From Minisyncoccota bacterium (GTDB taxonomy: Bacteria > Patescibacteriota > Minisyncoccia > Phycocordibacterales > UBA918): DNA of 64,000 bases. Where the stretch lies: contig JALHRC010000005.1 of assembly GCA_022841645.1 (NCBI GenBank), positions 2,804-66,803 on the forward strand, in the 5' to 3' direction. The translations under genes and the position numbers were made by a program. Positions 21,189 through 56,455 of this stretch are shown here, piece by piece (the stretch's first letter is position 1; every line of letters begins with the position of its first letter). The notes beneath the pieces are model-generated. The model ran no database searches, was not told the origin of the DNA, and saw nothing but the letters and a program-made list of their open reading frames with translations.

Positions 21189-21203
21189 ACCCTATTCTAT
21201 CAC

Positions 21204-21243
21204 CCGCGTACACCAATAAATACGTATTTATTGGTGTACGCGG
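21204..21243. promoter_or_regulatory. Operator/promoter module P1: a perfect 40-bp palindrome (ccgcgtacaccaataaatacg|tatttattggtgtacgcgg) followed by a TAGAAT -10-like box and the start codon
   Basis: It sits 16 nt upstream of the AbrB-like ATG. A near-identical module, P2, lies upstream of the 22543..23175 gene. Confidence 0.6.
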
Positions 21244-23192: not shown

Positions 23193-23228
23193 ACGTACAC
23201 CAATAAATACGTATTTATTGGTGTACGT
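23193..23228. promoter_or_regulatory. Operator/promoter module P2: a perfect 36-bp palindrome (acgtacaccaataaatacg|tatttattggtgtacgt), a TAGAAT box and the start codon
   Basis: It sits 17 nt upstream of the NudC-like ATG. Sequence identity with P1 extends through the -10-like box into the first codons (MA[N/K]R). Confidence 0.6.
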
Positions 23229-23241
23229 GGATGGACGGTGC

Positions 23242-31724: not shown

Positions 31725-31888
31725 GAAGTGTAATAAGTTCTAGTGTTCAATACTCTCTTTCAATATACCGGTCTAAAAGTAGAGGTACCGCCGCCCACAC
31801 TAACGTCGTAGAACGTCGAATCATTCCCCTCCTTTACTTTCAAACTTCTCATGCCCTTTGAGTATATACCCTCTAAACGTCATAACTT

Positions 31889-31926
31889 CATGTACTGCAT
31901 TAAATACGTATTTAATGCAGTACATG
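31889..31926. promoter_or_regulatory. Palindrome P3 (catgtactgcattaaatacg|tatttaatgcagtacatg), same core TAAATACGTATTTA and GTAC ends as P1/P2
   Basis: It is a perfect 38-bp palindrome in the intergenic region about 165 nt upstream of the kinase-like gene. Confidence 0.45.
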
Positions 31927-31977
31927 AGAATATAGCTAGAACGTTACCAAAGCCTGATCTGGTTCACGGCAATAAAA

Positions 31978-32570: not shown

Positions 32571-32786
32571 TCAATTCAACACCACAATCATCGCATTAAG
32601 GTAGGTGGCAAATGCTACCCACAGCAGGTACGGGACAAGCAGCGCAGCAGCAAGCGTGCTCCAGCGAGCAAAGACCACGAGCGTAGTAACGAAAGTAGCA
32701 AAAGTGCCGCAATAACTACGAGCGCTAGCTCTATTGAGCACATGGTAGTAGTGGTTCCCTACATTAACCCGAGCAGCTCGCGGCAT
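32571..32786 (-). pseudogene. Chimeric remnant: 24 codons of a RAYT/IS200-like transposase N-terminus fused to the C-terminal end of a TspO/MBR-like protein
   Basis: The N-terminus (MPRAARVNVGNHYYHVLNRASAR) matches the HUH Y1 transposase N-terminal pattern. The C-terminus (LVPYLLWVAFATYLNAMIVVLN) resembles a TspO C-terminus. Confidence 0.4.
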
Positions 32787-32828
32787 TGATTAACTGTATC
32801 ATAAAGGCTCCTGACCCTTTTTGCGAAG
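32719..32828 (-). mobile_element. Repeat copy A: about 110-bp fragment carrying the promoter and 5' end of a RAYT/IS200-like transposase gene
   Basis: It is about 80% identical to copy B at 34427..34546 in the same orientation. Confidence 0.45.
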
Positions 32829-32905
32829 CTAATCTCCGGAGCTGCAAAACATCACTCTAAAAATTGGTACGGCTGCTAGCTGCCTGGGCTGATGTTAGAA
32901 ACCAT

Positions 32906-33337
32906 TTAATGCATTAACCCATTAGCTACTAGGTAGCGAGCCACTGCTACTCTCGTGTACTCACTTGCAAAGATGACGCGTATAGCCTCATATTCCTGCT
33001 GCCCAGCTAGGTACTTATAGAGATATGAATTGACCATAGCTAGACGAGAAATTTCTTCCCCCAACGCTTCGTCACCTATAGCGAGGTAGGGTGCAAGGTA
33101 TCTCTTAAGTTTTCTTCCCTCCTCACTGGAAGCCATTTGCTTTAGTGCATGGTCTGCACTCGCTGAACCTTCACTATCACCATCAGTGTAAAGGAGGTGC
33201 GTTACATCAGTCTGTAACCGAGACATTATCCGCATCATTTCCTCCATCCTAGGATCAATAATAAATCCTTGGATTGGTAAATTTGAGACGTAATAGCCTT
33301 TTGACATTGCACTAGTGTAGCATTTATGGTTGTCCAT
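32906..33337 (-). CDS. Hypothetical protein (143 aa)
   Basis: It is a clean ORF with no recognisable motif. Confidence 0.4.
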   Translation of the reverse strand: MDNHKCYTSAMSKGYYVSNLPIQGFIIDPRMEEMMRIMSRLQTDVTHLLYTDGDSEGSASADHALKQMASSEEGRKLKRYLAPYLAIGDEALGEEISRLAMVNSYLYKYLAGQQEYEAIRVIFASEYTRVAVARYLVANGLMH

Positions 33338-33366
33338 TTGGGACTAGGCTGGAACACTTCCCTGTC

Positions 33367-33681
33367 TTGGACGATGTTAGAACTCTTCTGGTTCCCATGC
33401 GCTACAATAACGATATGCAGTCGCTGGAATATGTAACCGTTTTAATAGGTGCCACATTGCCAGCTCTAAGCTTTCTAATGCAATATCATTTCAGTGCTAA
33501 AGCCGGTACCCTGGATGCATTCAAAAGACACCAAATGGTGTACTGGGGGGACTGGCTTCTTGTACCCTTCGCTGCAATAGTTGGGCTACTCGTCAACTGG
33601 GCGAACATTGCATGGCTGTTAGCACCCTGCCTAAAAGTCAATATCTGCTGGCCGTCTGGGACGAGATTAGAATTTTTATAG
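33367..33681 (+). CDS. Hypothetical membrane protein (104 aa)
   Basis: It has two or three hydrophobic helices. Confidence 0.35.
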   Translation: MDDVRTLLVPMRYNNDMQSLEYVTVLIGATLPALSFLMQYHFSAKAGTLDAFKRHQMVYWGDWLLVPFAAIVGLLVNWANIAWLLAPCLKVNICWPSGTRLEFL

Positions 33682-34317
33682 AAAAGTCTTAATATCAGAA
33701 AGTTCATGCACAACTTTCCAAGCGGATTCTTTCACAACCTCCGGCGCATTGGTAAAAGTAACTCCTCGATTAGTTGCCTTGAAAAGCTCAATATCATTTG
33801 CTCCATCACCAATACAGAGACACTCCGACATGTCTATTCCCTCCCGTGAACAGAAGTTTTCTAGATGCTGGAGCTTTGCGTATTTTTCCTCTCCCTGACT
33901 CGCCACTTCCGAGAGAAATCCCGCATCATCAAAAAGTAATCTGGTGTTGGCTTTACGTAGTGGAATAGTCAATTTATCAGCAACTAAATCTACCAGCACA
34001 TCAAAAGAACCAGAAATAATTGCCGATTGATAGTTCTTTTGATGAAGATACGTGACCAGATCTGTGGCTCCCTCCTTCAACTCATAAGCGGATAAGGCAG
34101 TGATTATATTTTCTCTCGTAGCAAGTCCACGCTCCTTGTACAAAGTCACTAGCTTGGACGTCCACTCGTCGTATGGCAACTCCCCTCTCACGTACGCTTC
34201 GTACATTTCCAAGTCCTCTTCAGGAGTAATACCGAGTGCGATATTTAAAACATACCAACTGTTTTGCTTTATGAGAGTCTCATCCATATCAAAACAGATG
34301 AGTTTGACCTTATTCAT
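33676..34317 (-). CDS. HAD-superfamily hydrolase (subfamily IB, phosphoserine-phosphatase-like)
   Basis: It has the HAD motifs I (ICFDMDETL), II (SGS), and III/IV (K..GDGANDIE). Confidence 0.75.
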   Translation of the reverse strand: MNKVKLICFDMDETLIKQNSWYVLNIALGITPEEDLEMYEAYVRGELPYDEWTSKLVTLYKERGLATRENIITALSAYELKEGATDLVTYLHQKNYQSAIISGSFDVLVDLVADKLTIPLRKANTRLLFDDAGFLSEVASQGEEKYAKLQHLENFCSREGIDMSECLCIGDGANDIELFKATNRGVTFTNAPEVVKESAWKVVHELSDIKTFL

Positions 34318-34368
34318 AGTGAAAGTATAGCAAAAGTTCTGCCGTCACCGACCGGTACCAAATTTTCG

Positions 34369-34494
34369 CTATGAGAAACAAGTTTCAAAGAGCCCGTACG
34401 CTTCCTTCGTATCAAATAAAATCAAACGAGCGCTGGCTCGGTTGAGCACATGGAAATAGTGGTTTTTTACATCCACCCGAGCAGCCCGTGGCAT
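34369..34494 (-). pseudogene. Remnant of a RAYT/IS200-like transposase 5' end (41 codons, MPRAARVDVKNHYFHVLNRASAR...)
   Basis: It is the N-terminal Y1-transposase pattern only and lies within repeat copy B (34427..34546). Confidence 0.4.
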
Positions 34495-34546
34495 TGATAG
34501 ATTGTATCACAAAAGGCTCCTGACCCCTTTTTGCCCCTTTTTGCAA
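34427..34546 (-). mobile_element. Repeat copy B of the RAYT/IS200-like 5' fragment
   Basis: It aligns with copy A and has an internal tandem duplication (cccctttttg x2). Confidence 0.45.
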
Positions 34547-34566
34547 TTGTTGCTTTCATAAGCTAA

Positions 34567-34782
34567 CTAAATGAAATCTTGAGGAGTGAGTTGCGACTGC
34601 CGCAAAATGGAACGAAATGTGCCGTGCGGTATCTCTTTCTTATTGGCCGGAACAATCACTGTGAGAGTTTCCTCCTCGCCGATTTTGCGGTATTTCACAT
34701 GACTGCCCCTTTGGGACACAAAGTTAAAATTGTTTCTCTCTAGAATGGAAATTATACGGTCAGAGGAATGTAATCTCGGCAT
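34567..34782 (-). CDS. hicA: HicA family mRNA interferase toxin
   Basis: It has the YcfA/HicA signature (IISILERNNF..RGSHVKY). It lies 3 nt downstream of hicB. Confidence 0.75.
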   Translation of the reverse strand: MPRLHSSDRIISILERNNFNFVSQRGSHVKYRKIGEEETLTVIVPANKKEIPHGTFRSILRQSQLTPQDFI

Positions 34783-34785
34783 GCA

Positions 34786-34989
34786 TTACACCGAGACTAT
34801 TTCAGGTTCTTCTACTATAAAAACGACATCATCGGATGCGTCTTCAAAATAAAGTTCAAGAGCTTCTCGGAGATTTTTGAGTGCTTCTTCCTTTGAAGAT
34901 CCGAAGCTTGAAATATCCACATTTAAAGACTGAGCAACGTATTGATTGCCTTCTTTCCAAACTACATTTTTAAAATCTGCAATATCCAT
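34786..34989 (-). CDS. hicB: HicB family antitoxin (UPF0150)
   Basis: It is a small acidic protein upstream of and adjacent to hicA with HicB N-terminal-domain-like sequence. Confidence 0.65.
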   Translation of the reverse strand: MDIADFKNVVWKEGNQYVAQSLNVDISSFGSSKEEALKNLREALELYFEDASDDVVFIVEEPEIVSV

Positions 34990-35090
34990 ACCTTACAATA
35001 ATACAATACTTTAGACTAAAAGTATAGCAAACACGAGCAGAAAATTGGGGGGCATCCACTATTTCCCGTATTCTTGTGATGTAGTTTTTG

Positions 35091-35161
35091 CTGCCGGTCA
35101 GGGACTCGAACCCCAATAGCTGGTACCAGAAACCAGAGTCCTACCATTAGACGAACCGGCA
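35091..35161 (-). tRNA. tRNA-Gln (anticodon CUG)
   Basis: It folds as a cloverleaf with U1-A72, G73 discriminator, D-loop AATGGTA, anticodon loop UUCUGGU and TpsiC loop TTCGAGT. Confidence 0.8.
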
Positions 35162-44895: not shown

Positions 44896-46356
44896 TCAAC
44901 TCATCTGCACTCGGAGAGCGAGCTTGGTGCCAGTCGCATCGATAAATAGCAGCGCGACCGCATCACCCGACCAGAGGTCGTGAAGGCGGCGTGGCAAATT
45001 GGGGTCAACGATCAAATCACCCGAGGTACTGGGAATGGTAACAGCTTGTTCATAGTCCCAACCACCAGAGAAACCACCGGAGCGCACTCCCCCTTCGTGA
45101 AATTGAAAAAGAAGCGTGTAGGGCGAACCATCAGCATGGCGTGGCCACCCATTTCCTTGTGCCCACGCTGGCCAACCGCCCAATTTATCGCACAGAAGCG
45201 GACCAGCGTCGTCACTGTTGACGGTACTACTCGCAGTATCAGCCACAGCCGGCGCATCTTGGTCATCAGGATCTTCTTGATACTCGTCCCATCCGGTAAT
45301 CGCACCCGGAGCAATCACCGCATGTCTGTCTGCAACGGGGTCATGGAGTGTTGTGAGTCCAGTCGATTTTTCTAGTACCAAAGCACACACTCCCTCATCA
45401 CTCTCAGCAAACACCTTACAACCACGATCGGCATTGGCGCAGACAAATAGTTGCGCCAGCCCGGCAGTCGGTGACGGGAGCGGAGCCGGAATCGCTTCGA
45501 GGTCGAGTGTCAGGAGGTGTACCAAGGGCTCACCGCAGGAGCGACAACGCGGCCACTCTCCACCCGCTAGACGCAGCGCCGTCGTACCGCCTAGCATACT
45601 GTTTGCTCCATCAGAAGAACCGACTGTCGGTATAAAGACCGGTCGTGGATCGATCGTTGGGACTGGCCGCTTGGAAAGCGGTGGCGCGAGGCGCGGGGAG
45701 GGCAGCGGCGCTGGGGTAGGTACTTCGGGCAGCAGCTCTTTGTGTACCACCACACTACCATCGTGCGACACGTGCACAACCGGCACAAAACCGCTCGCCG
45801 TACGCAGCTGCAGTGAAACCAATCGGGGTTTTCCCTCCGCGTTTATTCCAGCCTCGAGGGCCAGACCAAATTGCACCATTGATAATTCGCTGTGCTGGGC
45901 GTCGAGATATTCCCGCGCCGCAGCAAGACTCGAGGCTGCACATCCAATGAGTAACTGCTGCCCGGTCATAGCTGCATTTACCACCAGTTGCAAATCTTCA
46001 TCAGACATTAGTTCTTTTGCGGGCAGTTCAATAATGGCAATCGTATCGGGATCTTGGCGCATGAGGGCCCGCAGCGCCGCTCCAAAATTAAGTGGAGCAG
46101 CCGCTCCATCCCCTGCCGGTGCCGAACGCACGAGCACTTCCCCACTACTAGTCGTGGTAACTAGAAAAACATTTTTGTTTAGAGCGGGAAAGGTGTCAGT
46201 CAGGCGCGTGGTGATCGGTGCCAACGCTTCTTTAGCACCATACACCAACACATGGGCATATCCCTGAGTGTATAAAAGAAATCGCAGCACGCGGGTAAAG
46301 TCACGCTGTGATTCGTCCTCTAGAAAATCATCAAGGGCGGTGAGATCGTTTGACAT
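44896..46356 (-). CDS. Hypothetical two-domain protein with a C-terminal DUF1963 (YwqG-like) domain
   Basis: The C-terminal region (GGWPAWAQGNGWP..LLFQF) is typical of DUF1963. The N-terminal domain is unassigned. Confidence 0.5.
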   Translation of the reverse strand: MSNDLTALDDFLEDESQRDFTRVLRFLLYTQGYAHVLVYGAKEALAPITTRLTDTFPALNKNVFLVTTTSSGEVLVRSAPAGDGAAAPLNFGAALRALMRQDPDTIAIIELPAKELMSDEDLQLVVNAAMTGQQLLIGCAASSLAAAREYLDAQHSELSMVQFGLALEAGINAEGKPRLVSLQLRTASGFVPVVHVSHDGSVVVHKELLPEVPTPAPLPSPRLAPPLSKRPVPTIDPRPVFIPTVGSSDGANSMLGGTTALRLAGGEWPRCRSCGEPLVHLLTLDLEAIPAPLPSPTAGLAQLFVCANADRGCKVFAESDEGVCALVLEKSTGLTTLHDPVADRHAVIAPGAITGWDEYQEDPDDQDAPAVADTASSTVNSDDAGPLLCDKLGGWPAWAQGNGWPRHADGSPYTLLFQFHEGGVRSGGFSGGWDYEQAVTIPSTSGDLIVDPNLPRRLHDLWSGDAVALLFIDATGTKLALRVQMS

Positions 46357-52875: not shown

Positions 52876-52946
52876 CCGAAGGGTTCGCACTCTTAGTTCA
52901 GCCCGTTAGTACGATCGATCGTACTAAGTGCGCCTGCCTCTTTTTT

Positions 52947-53017
52947 AAAATTCTGTTCTCGAAAACCGATCAATGTGGTAAGATGGCCCGCATCACGGGC
53001 CTATAGTTTAGTGGTAA
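52947..53017 (+). repeat. 71-nt duplicate of the tRNA-Trp promoter region plus the first 21 nt of tRNA-Trp (identical to 53184..53254)
   Basis: There is exact 71/71 identity. The copy stops in the D-loop and is followed by unrelated sequence. Confidence 0.7.
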
Positions 53018-53030
53018 GAAGCTAGTCGCT

Positions 53031-53180
53031 TCTTCCTTTCTGCGCTCACTCGGAAATCCAAACCTCATCGGCTTGGACTTCGCTCGTTTCGCTTGAAGAA
53101 AGCCTCCGGCAGGTCTTCCTTTCTGCGCTCACTCGGAAATCCAAACCTCATCGGCTTGGACTTCGCTCGTTTCGCTTGAA
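53031..53180 (+). repeat. Tandem direct repeat: two identical 67-nt units (53031-53097 and 53114-53180) separated by 16 nt
   Basis: The unit is tcttcctttctgcgctcactcggaaatccaaacctcatcggcttggacttcgctcgtttcgcttgaa, seen twice. Confidence 0.7.
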
Positions 53181-53233
53181 AGTAAAATTCTGTTCTCGAA
53201 AACCGATCAATGTGGTAAGATGGCCCGCATCAC

Positions 53234-53304
53234 GGGCCTATAGTTTAGTGGTAAAATTCTGGTCTCCAAAACCAGCGTCCTCCGTTCGAGTCGGAGTGGG
53301 CCCG
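53234..53304 (+). tRNA. tRNA-Trp (anticodon CCA)
   Basis: It has acceptor GGGCCUA/UGGGCCC with discriminator G, anticodon loop CUCCAAA and TpsiC TTCGAGT. A TGn-TAAGAT promoter-like sequence lies upstream. Confidence 0.85.
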
Positions 53305-53580
53305 CAGTCATATACAAAAAGTTAAGCACGGCACTTGCTTTGATCAGTTTTTATTTCGCCTGCCCTCACGGTATTTCGGTCAAAACCTTTCCCTAATCGA
53401 CCTTTTTCCAAGTGATGGCGAACATACAACCCCTTTAACTAGTTGGTGGAGCGCAATGCCAATGAGCACTACGGCTGTCAGCATCGGGGCCTTCCCAGGT
53501 ACACATAGTATTGGGCGATACACGATAACCAGTAAACCCCCCAAAACTCCGTAACCGCTCGTAGGCAGTTTGCCCTGTTC

Positions 53581-56061: not shown

Positions 56062-56098
56062 CGTCGGTGGTGGAGTGGTCAATCACAACAGACTGTAA
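56062..56098 (+). repeat. 37-nt exact duplicate of the 5' half of tRNA-Tyr (through the anticodon), followed by a hairpin-rich 150-nt insert
   Basis: It is identical to 56252..56288. Serial perfect hairpins follow downstream (atgtgtcttc/gaagacacat, gtcgc/gcgac, aaatct/agattt). Confidence 0.65.
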
Positions 56099-56250
56099 GA
56101 CTGACGCTTCGCGCACCAGGCAGTCTTTCTGGCAGATGTGTCTTCCACCGAAGACACATTAAAAAGTCGCTATAGCGACACACCAGTAAATCTTACAGAT
56201 TTCCAGTCTAGATAGATTACGAAAAACATTTGAGTTACAATTGCATATCT

Positions 56251-56333
56251 GCGTCGGTGGTGGAGTGGTCAATCACAACAGACTGTAAATCTGTCGGCTT
56301 CGGCCTACGAAGGTTCGAATCCTTCCCGGCGCA
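56251..56333 (+). tRNA. tRNA-Tyr (anticodon GUA)
   Basis: It has acceptor GCGUCGG/CCGGCGC with discriminator A, anticodon loop CUGUAAA, a long variable arm and TpsiC TTCGAAT. Two terminator hairpins follow. Confidence 0.85.
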
Positions 56334-56455
56334 CAGGTCGTGAAAAACTTGACGTTTTTCCTCAGAAAGCTCTTGTATATCAAGGGCTTTTTTGGTGCCG
56401 AACCTACCTAGACTATCGCCAAGCTTCTTATAAACATTTTGAAAGCCGATTAGTT

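Follow-up and report, generated by a model that had tools for sequence, protein, structure and literature searches.

Two truncated transposase genes in a Minisyncoccota genome are probably solo left ends of TIRtrons

Two stretches of about 110 nt in a Patescibacteria genome open reading frames with the same transposase-like N-terminus and then part company, which raises the question of what kind of element left them there and whether anything in them could still work. They lie within 64,000 nt of a Minisyncoccota bacterium (GenBank assembly GCA_022841645.1, contig JALHRC010000005.1, positions 2,804 to 66,803; this whole stretch is called the window here), and we refer to them as relic A and relic B. 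The original prediction took them for decayed 5' ends of a transposase resembling the REP-associated tyrosine transposases (RAYTs; REP, repetitive extragenic palindromic) or IS200. Our analysis indicates that two copies of a TIRtron have left them behind as inert solo left ends, a reading to which we give a probability of roughly 80%. A TIRtron is the unit formed by a RAYT-like gene, called a TIRYT, and the terminal inverted repeats that flank it (Di Nocera et al. 2013, PMC3733652).

Comparison by blastn aligned relic A (32718-32824) with relic B (34426-34534) over 109 columns at 83.5% identity (E 1.6e-26), in direct orientation and 1708 nt apart, and the coordinates (32719-32828 and 34427-34546), shared orientation and identity of about 80% given in the prediction were essentially right. 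The repeat is 107-109 nt long and coding on the minus strand in both relics, and each copy has indeed kept its start codon (ATG at 32786 in relic A and at 34494 in relic B). The common stretch extends about 40 nt 5' of the ATG, through a left terminal inverted repeat and a -10 box, and at its other end the homology between the relics stops exactly where the transposase-derived part of relic A stops. DNA and peptide searches alike found no third copy in the window. Four other sequencing runs yielded Logan contigs that match the window at 100% identity; two of these contigs (L001 and L002) span both relics, and the other two (L003 and L004) cover only relic B and the HAD hydrolase gene that follows it. 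Because these independent contigs are identical to the window and two of them span both relics, the layout is not an assembly artefact.

The relics were assigned to a transposase family through their relatives. A phmmer search with the 41-residue peptide of relic B against 1.84 billion representative proteins returned 36 matches at E<=1e-3, nearly all of them aligned from their own residue 1, and the longer matches belong to the Pfam family Y1_Tnp (PF01797; P0005 at 5.8e-16, P0036 at 2e-13). Full-length relatives match PF01797 at E values down to 7e-19. In six of these, positions 2-121 of the 121 in the profile fall within residues 9-126 (48-68 bits versus a cut-off of 23) and are followed by a C-terminal extension of about 100 residues that has no Pfam match. 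Since full-length relatives with this N-terminus match PF01797, the proposal that both copies derive from the 5' end of a Y1 HUH transposase gene is supported; the relics themselves are homologous to the first ~15-33 positions of the profile only. The family is large, with at least 563 loci in one-genome-per-species contigs, mostly from Patescibacteria, with some from Planctomycetota, Omnitrophota and Elusimicrobiota, and some genomes carry two or more copies (CP060229.1 has two). The best 80 of these at least 563 loci encode proteins of ~224 residues, and relatives range from 214 to 234 residues.

We built a family hidden Markov model (HMM) from 80 relatives longer than 200 residues, nearly all of them full length. 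Relic B scores 44.6 bits against model positions 1-39, and relic A scores 29.1 bits against positions 1-23. When 72-75 full-length family proteins were compared with the window by tblastn, relics A and B were the only two sites found; relic A matches residues 1-23 of the relatives, and no alignment is supported beyond query residue 41. Intact transposases with the N-terminus of the relics do exist, and the similarity survives profile search: in addition to the at least 563 loci, a metagenome scan for a close parent returned two full-length genes, both distant (43-46% identity), that carry the exact YHVLNRASAR in intact proteins of 233-237 residues. An initial scan of genome contigs with the two-copy alignment had matched 19 stretches, none of which was confirmed.

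Could the resemblance be accidental? The 23 residues common to the relics might be a short motif unrelated to transposases, and the repeat some other regulatory or leader-peptide element, and for such a view one can cite the lack of a direct Pfam, NCBIfam or PDB match, or of a word-index homologue, for the peptides. It would have to explain, however, why a profile of 80 relatives aligns residues 1-39 of relic B at 44.6 bits, why full-length family proteins single out the two relics by tblastn, and why a family-specific upstream repeat and -10 box stand at the correct spacing from each ATG. We regard a chance resemblance as effectively refuted.

Which kind of Y1 transposase this is can be read from profile scores and from the ends of the elements. 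The relatives score 37.5-51.8 bits against the NCBIfam RAYT model (REP_Tyr_transpos, NF047646; cut-off 80) and 16.5-25.1 bits against the IS200 model (NF033573; cut-off 55), and the relic peptides do not match NF047646. By these scores the family is nearer to RAYTs than to IS200 and formally a member of neither, so that, of the predicted RAYT/IS200-like character, the RAYT half stands and the IS200 half does not. With RAYT/TnpA-REP of E. coli and Pseudomonas the family shares the Y1 HUH fold and a gene placed between inverted copies of a short, partly self-complementary sequence; it differs in falling below the 80-bit cut-off and in having no GTAG or GTGG tag at its ends. No dispersed high-copy REP/REPIN family is present in the window, where the only two occurrences of the flanking motif are those at the relics. 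The TnpA proteins of IS200/IS605 (ISDra2, 2xm3; IS608; Sulfolobus, 2ec2) belong to PF01797 as well, and their HUH motif and tyrosine align with those of the family, but the relatives are ~90 residues longer in addition to missing the IS200 cut-off. IS200/IS605 elements end in subterminal hairpins of the same orientation, whereas the ends of the family studied here are inverted repeats.

The closest fit is to the TIRYTs. Relatives of the relics are longer than RAYTs, have a C-terminal extension, and are flanked by repeats of the GGGGWSAS type (GGGGTCAG, GGTGTCAG or GGGGACAG); these repeats can overlap the 3' end of the gene, and reiterated or dimeric repeats stand beside genes. Published TIRtron repeats share GGGGWSAS and overlap the gene ends (PMC3733652), and TIRYTs have been equated with subclass 2.1 of TnpAY1, whose long proteins are extended at the C-terminus (Quentin et al. 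2018, PMC6006769). There are also differences: the window holds two left-end stumps without an enzyme or a right repeat, and the helix-turn-helix-like similarity reported for the C-terminus was not detected in the extension of the six relatives by single-sequence Pfam scans (none at E<=5). Judged by these features, the family of the relics is the published TIRYT/TIRtron class, which probably corresponds to TnpAY1 subclass 2.1.

What the relics have lost is best measured against the intact elements of the family. Of 75 family loci, 70 have the core [GT]G[TA]CAG at a distance of 30-68 nt (mostly 30-50) upstream of the ATG, compared with a background of 0.06 per 90 nt. The left motif is embedded in AAAAGG-GGTCAG-NNN-CCTTTT, and the upstream part of the repeat is conserved across unrelated loci. 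Left and right repeats agree at 14 or more of 16 positions in 65 of 68 loci, perfectly in 45, and because true pairs match at 15.4 positions on average, versus 12.6 ± 0.17 for permuted pairings of loci, the two ends covary; the covarying variants include GAGCC/GGCTC, CCACC/GGTGG and GAACC/GGTTC. In 51 of these 65 loci the right repeat begins 9 nt ahead of where the stop codon ends, placing the last two codons and the TGA within the repeat. A stem within the left repeat is 88% paired, versus at most 68% in shifted controls, and one of its pairs switches between A-T (33 loci) and T-A (23 loci). A stable hairpin was rejected on folding energy (-3.8 to -3.9 kcal/mol, z -0.2 to -1.6); because the hairpin is weak, it is covariation that argues for the stem.

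Promoter-like sequence accompanies the left repeat. In 49 of 78 loci the family -10 box, frequently TGATATAAT, has its end 6-11 nt ahead of the ATG, and a box matching TATAAT at five or more of six positions lies within 30 nt of the ATG in 52 of 78, ending 6-9 nt upstream in 32 of these 52. Because the box ends so near the ATG, the transcript leader is suggested to be very short or absent. An intact element would thus comprise, between terminal inverted repeats of ~16-20 bp with a GGGGWSAS core, the left repeat, a -10 box ~6-11 nt before the ATG, a gene for ~224 residues, and a right repeat usually overlapping the last codons and the TGA. If it works like RAYT and IS200/IS605 enzymes, the transposase would attach to the repeat ends and cleave single-stranded DNA with its HUH metal site and catalytic tyrosine.

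Relic B retains the longer remnant. Its left terminal inverted repeat (34511-34544, minus strand) reads GCAAAAAGGG GCAAAAAGGGGTCAGGAGCCTTTT (repeat families D4 and D19), with the outer 10 nt reiterated, i.e., GCAAAAAGGG is present twice; similar reiterations of end motifs are seen at many family loci. The core of the repeat, GGGGTCAG, agrees with GGGGWSAS at all eight positions. An extended -10 box, TGATACAAT (34501-34509, minus strand), ends 6 nt before the ATG and is predicted to act as a promoter. The first 41 codons of the TIRYT gene and a stop follow (MPRAARVDVKNHYFHVLNRASARLILFDTKEAYGLFETCFS; 34369-34494, minus strand; identified by phmmer and the family HMM), of which 18 are genuine transposase codons beyond the 23 common to relic A, and on this homology the 41-residue open reading frame (ORF) is a transposase stump. 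It ends 51 nt before the HAD gene; the start codons of the two are 177 nt apart, hence in the same frame (34317-34494, minus strand). Homology past codon 41 was considered and rejected. Family alignments by tblastn cross two stops into the N-terminus of the HAD protein (MNKVKLI versus MPNHFHLV) and the DNA alignment looked suggestive, but the family HMM gains no score from this tail, and we therefore treat the run-on as a coincidence.

Relic A is shorter and ends in a different gene. Its left terminal inverted repeat (32803-32824, minus strand), which reads GCAAAAAGGGTCAGGAGCCTTT, carries the motif found upstream of family genes, and its core, AGGGTCAG, agrees with the TIRYT consensus at seven of eight positions. 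The putative extended -10 box, TGATACAGT (32793-32801, minus strand), again ends 6 nt before the ATG but is degenerate, its hexamer having decayed to TACAGT. The first 23 codons of the TIRYT gene (MPRAARVNVGNHYYHVLNRASAR; 32718-32786, minus strand; family HMM and tblastn) then run in frame into the C-terminus of a TspO gene, and together they form a 71-residue reading frame (ORF A, 32571-32786). The TspO tail consists of the last 48 codons and the stop (32571-32717, minus strand), and the prediction was right to call it a TspO remnant: it matches PF03073 at 38.8 bits (cut-off 24) over profile positions 98-144 of 145 and NF047825 over positions 107-148 of 152. ORF A residues 24-71 cover the last ~47 positions of PF03073, including the LLVPYLLWVAFATYLN helix. 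The junction is in frame with TspO residue ~100, so ~100 N-terminal codons are missing; no TspO N-terminus was detected elsewhere in the window with a Rhodobacter sequence, which is a weak probe. With its score above the cut-off the tail is, on the profile evidence, a genuine TspO fragment. What it shares with the tryptophan-rich sensory proteins of the TspO/MBR family is the C-terminal match, whereas a full five-helix domain spans ~145 profile positions. Because the ~100 N-terminal residues are missing, the product should not be a functional five-helix TspO, and the 71-residue 'TspO' reading frame is best described as a chimeric pseudogene.

The breakpoints bear on catalysis. Aligned family members show PNH[FW]HL as their HUH motif, at about residues 58-62, and carry the catalytic tyrosine within RY[VI]xxNP, at about residue 121; in a profile search against the PDB the two align with H67/H69 and Y132 of ISDra2 TnpA (2xm3, E 9.5e-4), a numbering that agrees with the printed alignment. 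Relic A stops at residue 23 and relic B at residue 41, short of the HUH motif; the catalytic tyrosine is absent from both and from the whole window, while the relatives have it. The prediction had read YHV as a degenerate HUH pair and suggested that even the parent may be inactive. Because HUH is PNH[FW]HL, beyond both truncation points, intact in the relatives and aligned with the ISDra2 histidines, YHV (residues 14-16) is not a decayed HUH; it is a conserved first-strand motif, and the parent family looks catalytically intact. The description of the copies as retaining nothing beyond the N-terminal pattern also needs correction, as relic B has 41 codons and both relics keep a left inverted repeat and a predicted promoter.

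Lacking both active-site elements (HUH motif and tyrosine) as well as the C-terminal extension and the right repeat, neither relic would encode the enzyme or move as a unit. Neither a right repeat nor a 3' part of the gene was found anywhere in the window. The suggestion that the relics are MITE-like (MITE stands for miniature inverted-repeat transposable element) does not hold for this reason. A MITE requires both terminal repeats around a short non-coding core; the relics are, like MITEs, short non-autonomous transposon derivatives, but they are one-ended and hence not mobilisable. The alternative offered with it, solo ends recording past mobile-element activity, agrees with the finding of left repeats only. 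A left-repeat-like sequence (GGTGTCAG/AAAGGTGTCAG) at 46189-46199 falls within a long ORF and has no transposase-like coding sequence next to it, and we judge it to be a chance occurrence.

How did two such ends come to lie so close together? Among the 23 common codons there are eight synonymous and four nonsynonymous differences (synonymous divergence, dS, 0.74; nonsynonymous divergence, dN, 0.08; dN/dS 0.11; Fisher p=8e-4), suggesting that the sequences diverged under coding constraint and decayed afterwards. We therefore favour two paralogous genes that were truncated later over a recent duplication of a dead fragment. Because the breakpoints differ (codon 23 in relic A, codon ~41 in relic B), separate truncation is most likely. 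The relics are closest to each other (87% amino acid identity, versus at most 74% to any database protein) and share NRASAR where the family has NRAN[AG]R, and both probably come from one subfamily within the lineage.

This same closeness is what a single event would also produce. Circular or linear DNA carrying a TIRtron left end, the HAD gene and the neighbouring ORF143 might have recombined with a resident TIRtron at the common 5' segment of ~110 nt, in the manner of Campbell integration, leaving direct repeats around a 1.6-kb insert, or a tandem duplication might have made both copies. The direct orientation at 1708 nt, the mutual closeness (87% versus at most 74%), the homology that ends exactly with the transposase part of relic A, the low GC content of the block in between, and a similar layout at locus L006, where a truncated copy, a cargo gene and a full copy follow one another, are all compatible with this. 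Yet 83% identity and dS 0.74 represent more divergence than a recent duplication or efficient homologous recombination would allow, a simple reciprocal exchange fails to explain why relic B has 18 further transposase codons where relic A switches to TspO, and no target or att duplication flanks the block. We consider a single event unlikely.

We thus return to two copies that would have diverged as working genes and were then, most likely, truncated separately. Each lost all sequence 3' of codon 23 (relic A) or codon 41 (relic B), and with it the HUH motif and tyrosine, the C-terminal extension and the right repeat. In relic A, a deletion that began within the transposase gene and reached a TspO gene lying downstream in the same orientation would have created the in-frame chimera of 71 residues. 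We infer this order of events and the deletion mechanism from the arrangement of the fragments. The only plausible remaining activity would be that of the predicted relic promoters, reading into downstream DNA.

That residual activity is the basis of another explanation, in which the left-end module (repeat, near-leaderless promoter and start codon) was kept by selection as a portable expression signal, serving the HAD gene after relic B and the chimeric TspO frame and ORF175 after relic A. Both relics keep an ATG, a -10 box and an open frame with dN/dS 0.11, both are in frame with the next gene with the promoter 6 nt from the ATG as in the family, and the identical arrangement recurs in the two assemblies from other runs that span both relics. 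Low dN/dS is expected anyway, however, if divergence preceded truncation. The putative beneficiaries also fit poorly: relic A has a degraded -10 box and a TspO fragment amounting to just 48 of the ~150 residues of a membrane protein, between a quarter and a third, while relic B meets a stop at codon 42 and the HAD gene has a -10-like TATACT and an ATG of its own. Finally, relics of the 3' end are no rarer than relics of the 5' end in the vicinity of other family members, which leaves no left-end bias, and a family-wide tendency to keep 5' ends was rejected on these grounds (3' relics at L006, L019 with three, L061, L067 and L086; a 5' relic at L006). Selection for the left-end module is, in our estimate, somewhat less probable still than the single event.

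Inert solo left ends of two TIRtron copies remain the explanation that we prefer, and several points weigh against it. The transposase part of the 41- and 71-residue peptides matches no Pfam, NCBIfam or PDB entry, and the relatives that connect it to the family are 55-67% identical over ~40 residues, through which the membership of the relics is one of transitive homology. No close full-length parent (>70% identical) was found in the scans of genome contigs and metagenomes. The dN/dS of 0.11 also fits continuing selection on the fragments themselves, and the placement of both relics in frame with the next gene, by fusion in relic A and through HAD and relic B starts that share a frame, has a chance of ~1 in 9 and hints that their retention may not be wholly neutral. 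Searches with ORF175 and with the TspO tail yielded no related genome with an intact TspO gene or an empty site: ORF175 returned one near-identical protein and one 64%-identical homologue on an uninformative 966-bp contig, and the TspO tail returned only itself.

Decayed copies of the family also occur elsewhere, in truncated, internally deleted and 3'-reiterated forms (L006, L089 and L019). MITE-like, internally deleted copies that retain both ends are found at L089 (475-897) and L006 (1343-1532). Locus L006 (1166-3106; ENA ERZ27301261 k141_556853) is a nested TIRtron cluster in which a 5' stump of ~45 codons is broken by a 190-bp internally deleted mini-element of another repeat subtype (GGGGTCAGCCACC), followed by a gene for 217 residues without assignment, a full TIRYT of 223 residues, and an exact 88-nt reiteration of the 3' end with the right repeat. 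At L019, three reiterated 3' fragments lie downstream of the gene. Tandem partial reiterations of end motifs occur at many of 80 loci (L008-L087), among them L014, L016, L031, L051 and L086; in the last, the TIRYT gene is preceded by three to four copies of AAATGGGGTCAG and followed by at least five of TGACCCCAATTCC. Such reiterations look like footprints of repeated processing at the ends.

The neighbourhood of the relics is mixed. The gene block between them (32906-34317, minus strand) comprises ORF143 (32906-33337, minus strand), which has no family match, the HAD-family hydrolase gene (33676-34317, minus strand), and a doubtful, antisense ORF104 (33367-33681, plus strand); searches of the block genes with phage and defence profiles gave nothing relevant. 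A HicAB toxin-antitoxin pair adjoins relic B at 34567-34989, as had been predicted, with HicA (34567-34782, minus strand; PF07927, 57 bits versus a cut-off of 27) preceded upstream by a HicB-like antitoxin of 67 residues (34786-34989, minus strand) that matches PF24113 (DUF7387) at 28.9 bits (cut-off 27.9) and, weakly, HicB_lk (E 0.11). PADLOC gave no match for these two genes. A tRNA-Gln gene (CTG) follows at 35090-35161 on the minus strand (ARAGORN; Rfam 50.4 bits). GC content is 0.42-0.46 in the block between the relics and 0.40-0.46 across 32.8-35.1 kb, versus 0.52-0.60 in the flanks, and this low-GC island of 2.4 kb (32718-35089) abuts the 3' end of tRNA-Gln, at whose island edge no att-type duplication was found. 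A low-GC stretch with the relics and HicAB beside a tRNA gene suggests a small dumping ground for mobile DNA.

Other repeats were seen in the window. A 21-nt motif (CTGCCTGGGCTGATGTTAGAA, CTGTCTTGGACGATGTTAGAA, CCGTCTGGGACGAGATTAGAA) occurs on the plus strand in three copies of the same orientation (32880-32900, 33362-33382 and 33652-33672) and nowhere else in the window. All three are at gene boundaries within the block between the relics, two of them 4-6 nt past the HAD and ORF143 stop codons and one 25 nt ahead of the ORF143 start, and the first and third have ~42 nt in common. An attC-like interpretation of the motif was rejected, as no fold was better than that of shuffled sequence. Perfect palindromes of 32-40 nt lie at 21201-21240, 23194-23233 and 31888-31927, two of them reading GTACACCAATAAATAC|GTATTTATTGGTGTAC and a variant reading GTACTGCATTAAATAC|GTATTTAATGCAGTAC, in which changes in one arm are compensated on the opposite arm. 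The third palindrome contains the point (31898) at which two independent Logan contigs end. Such palindromes could represent a structured repeat resembling a terminator or a REP. In the regions 52946-53305 and 56062-56334, respectively, tRNA-Trp and tRNA-Tyr each stand after a second copy of their own 5' part and upstream sequence (52946-53027 versus 53183-53264, 95%, for tRNA-Trp; 56062-56106 versus 56252-56296, 93%, for tRNA-Tyr), and a perfect 67-nt repeat pair (53031-53097 and 53114-53180) has starts 83 nt apart. The tRNA duplications may record either an integration at tRNA genes or a local duplication there.

Taken by themselves, the relics add two examples to a kind already known, the decayed TIRtron end, and are ordinary genomic debris. 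The class was described in 2013 from a few dozen genomes, before most Patescibacteria genomes were available (PMC3733652), and our literature search found no paper linking RAYT or IS200 to Patescibacteria, the RAYT results being unrelated microbiome studies and the IS200 results incidental mentions. The abundance and uniform architecture of TIRtrons in Patescibacteria thus seem not to have been written up before, and their dominance there is an extension of the known taxonomic range, not a new mechanism. A bolder picture is also conceivable, in which TIRtrons are the main and still-active small transposon of Patescibacteria and their left-end module is repeatedly left behind and reused as an expression cassette, making the relics functional donors of a promoter and start codon and layouts such as that of L006 the outcome of cargo capture by one-ended events; we hold this to be a long shot.

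For annotation, these results correct a chimeric 71-residue 'TspO', a 41-residue stump and, at 32.7-35.1 kb beside tRNA-Gln, a mosaic of mobile DNA. For the family, they provide a clean sequence signature with which TIRtron relics can be masked and a data set for testing how these enzymes recognise their ends. TIRtrons are very common in Patescibacteria (at least 563 loci), with a sharply defined architecture and many decayed derivatives.

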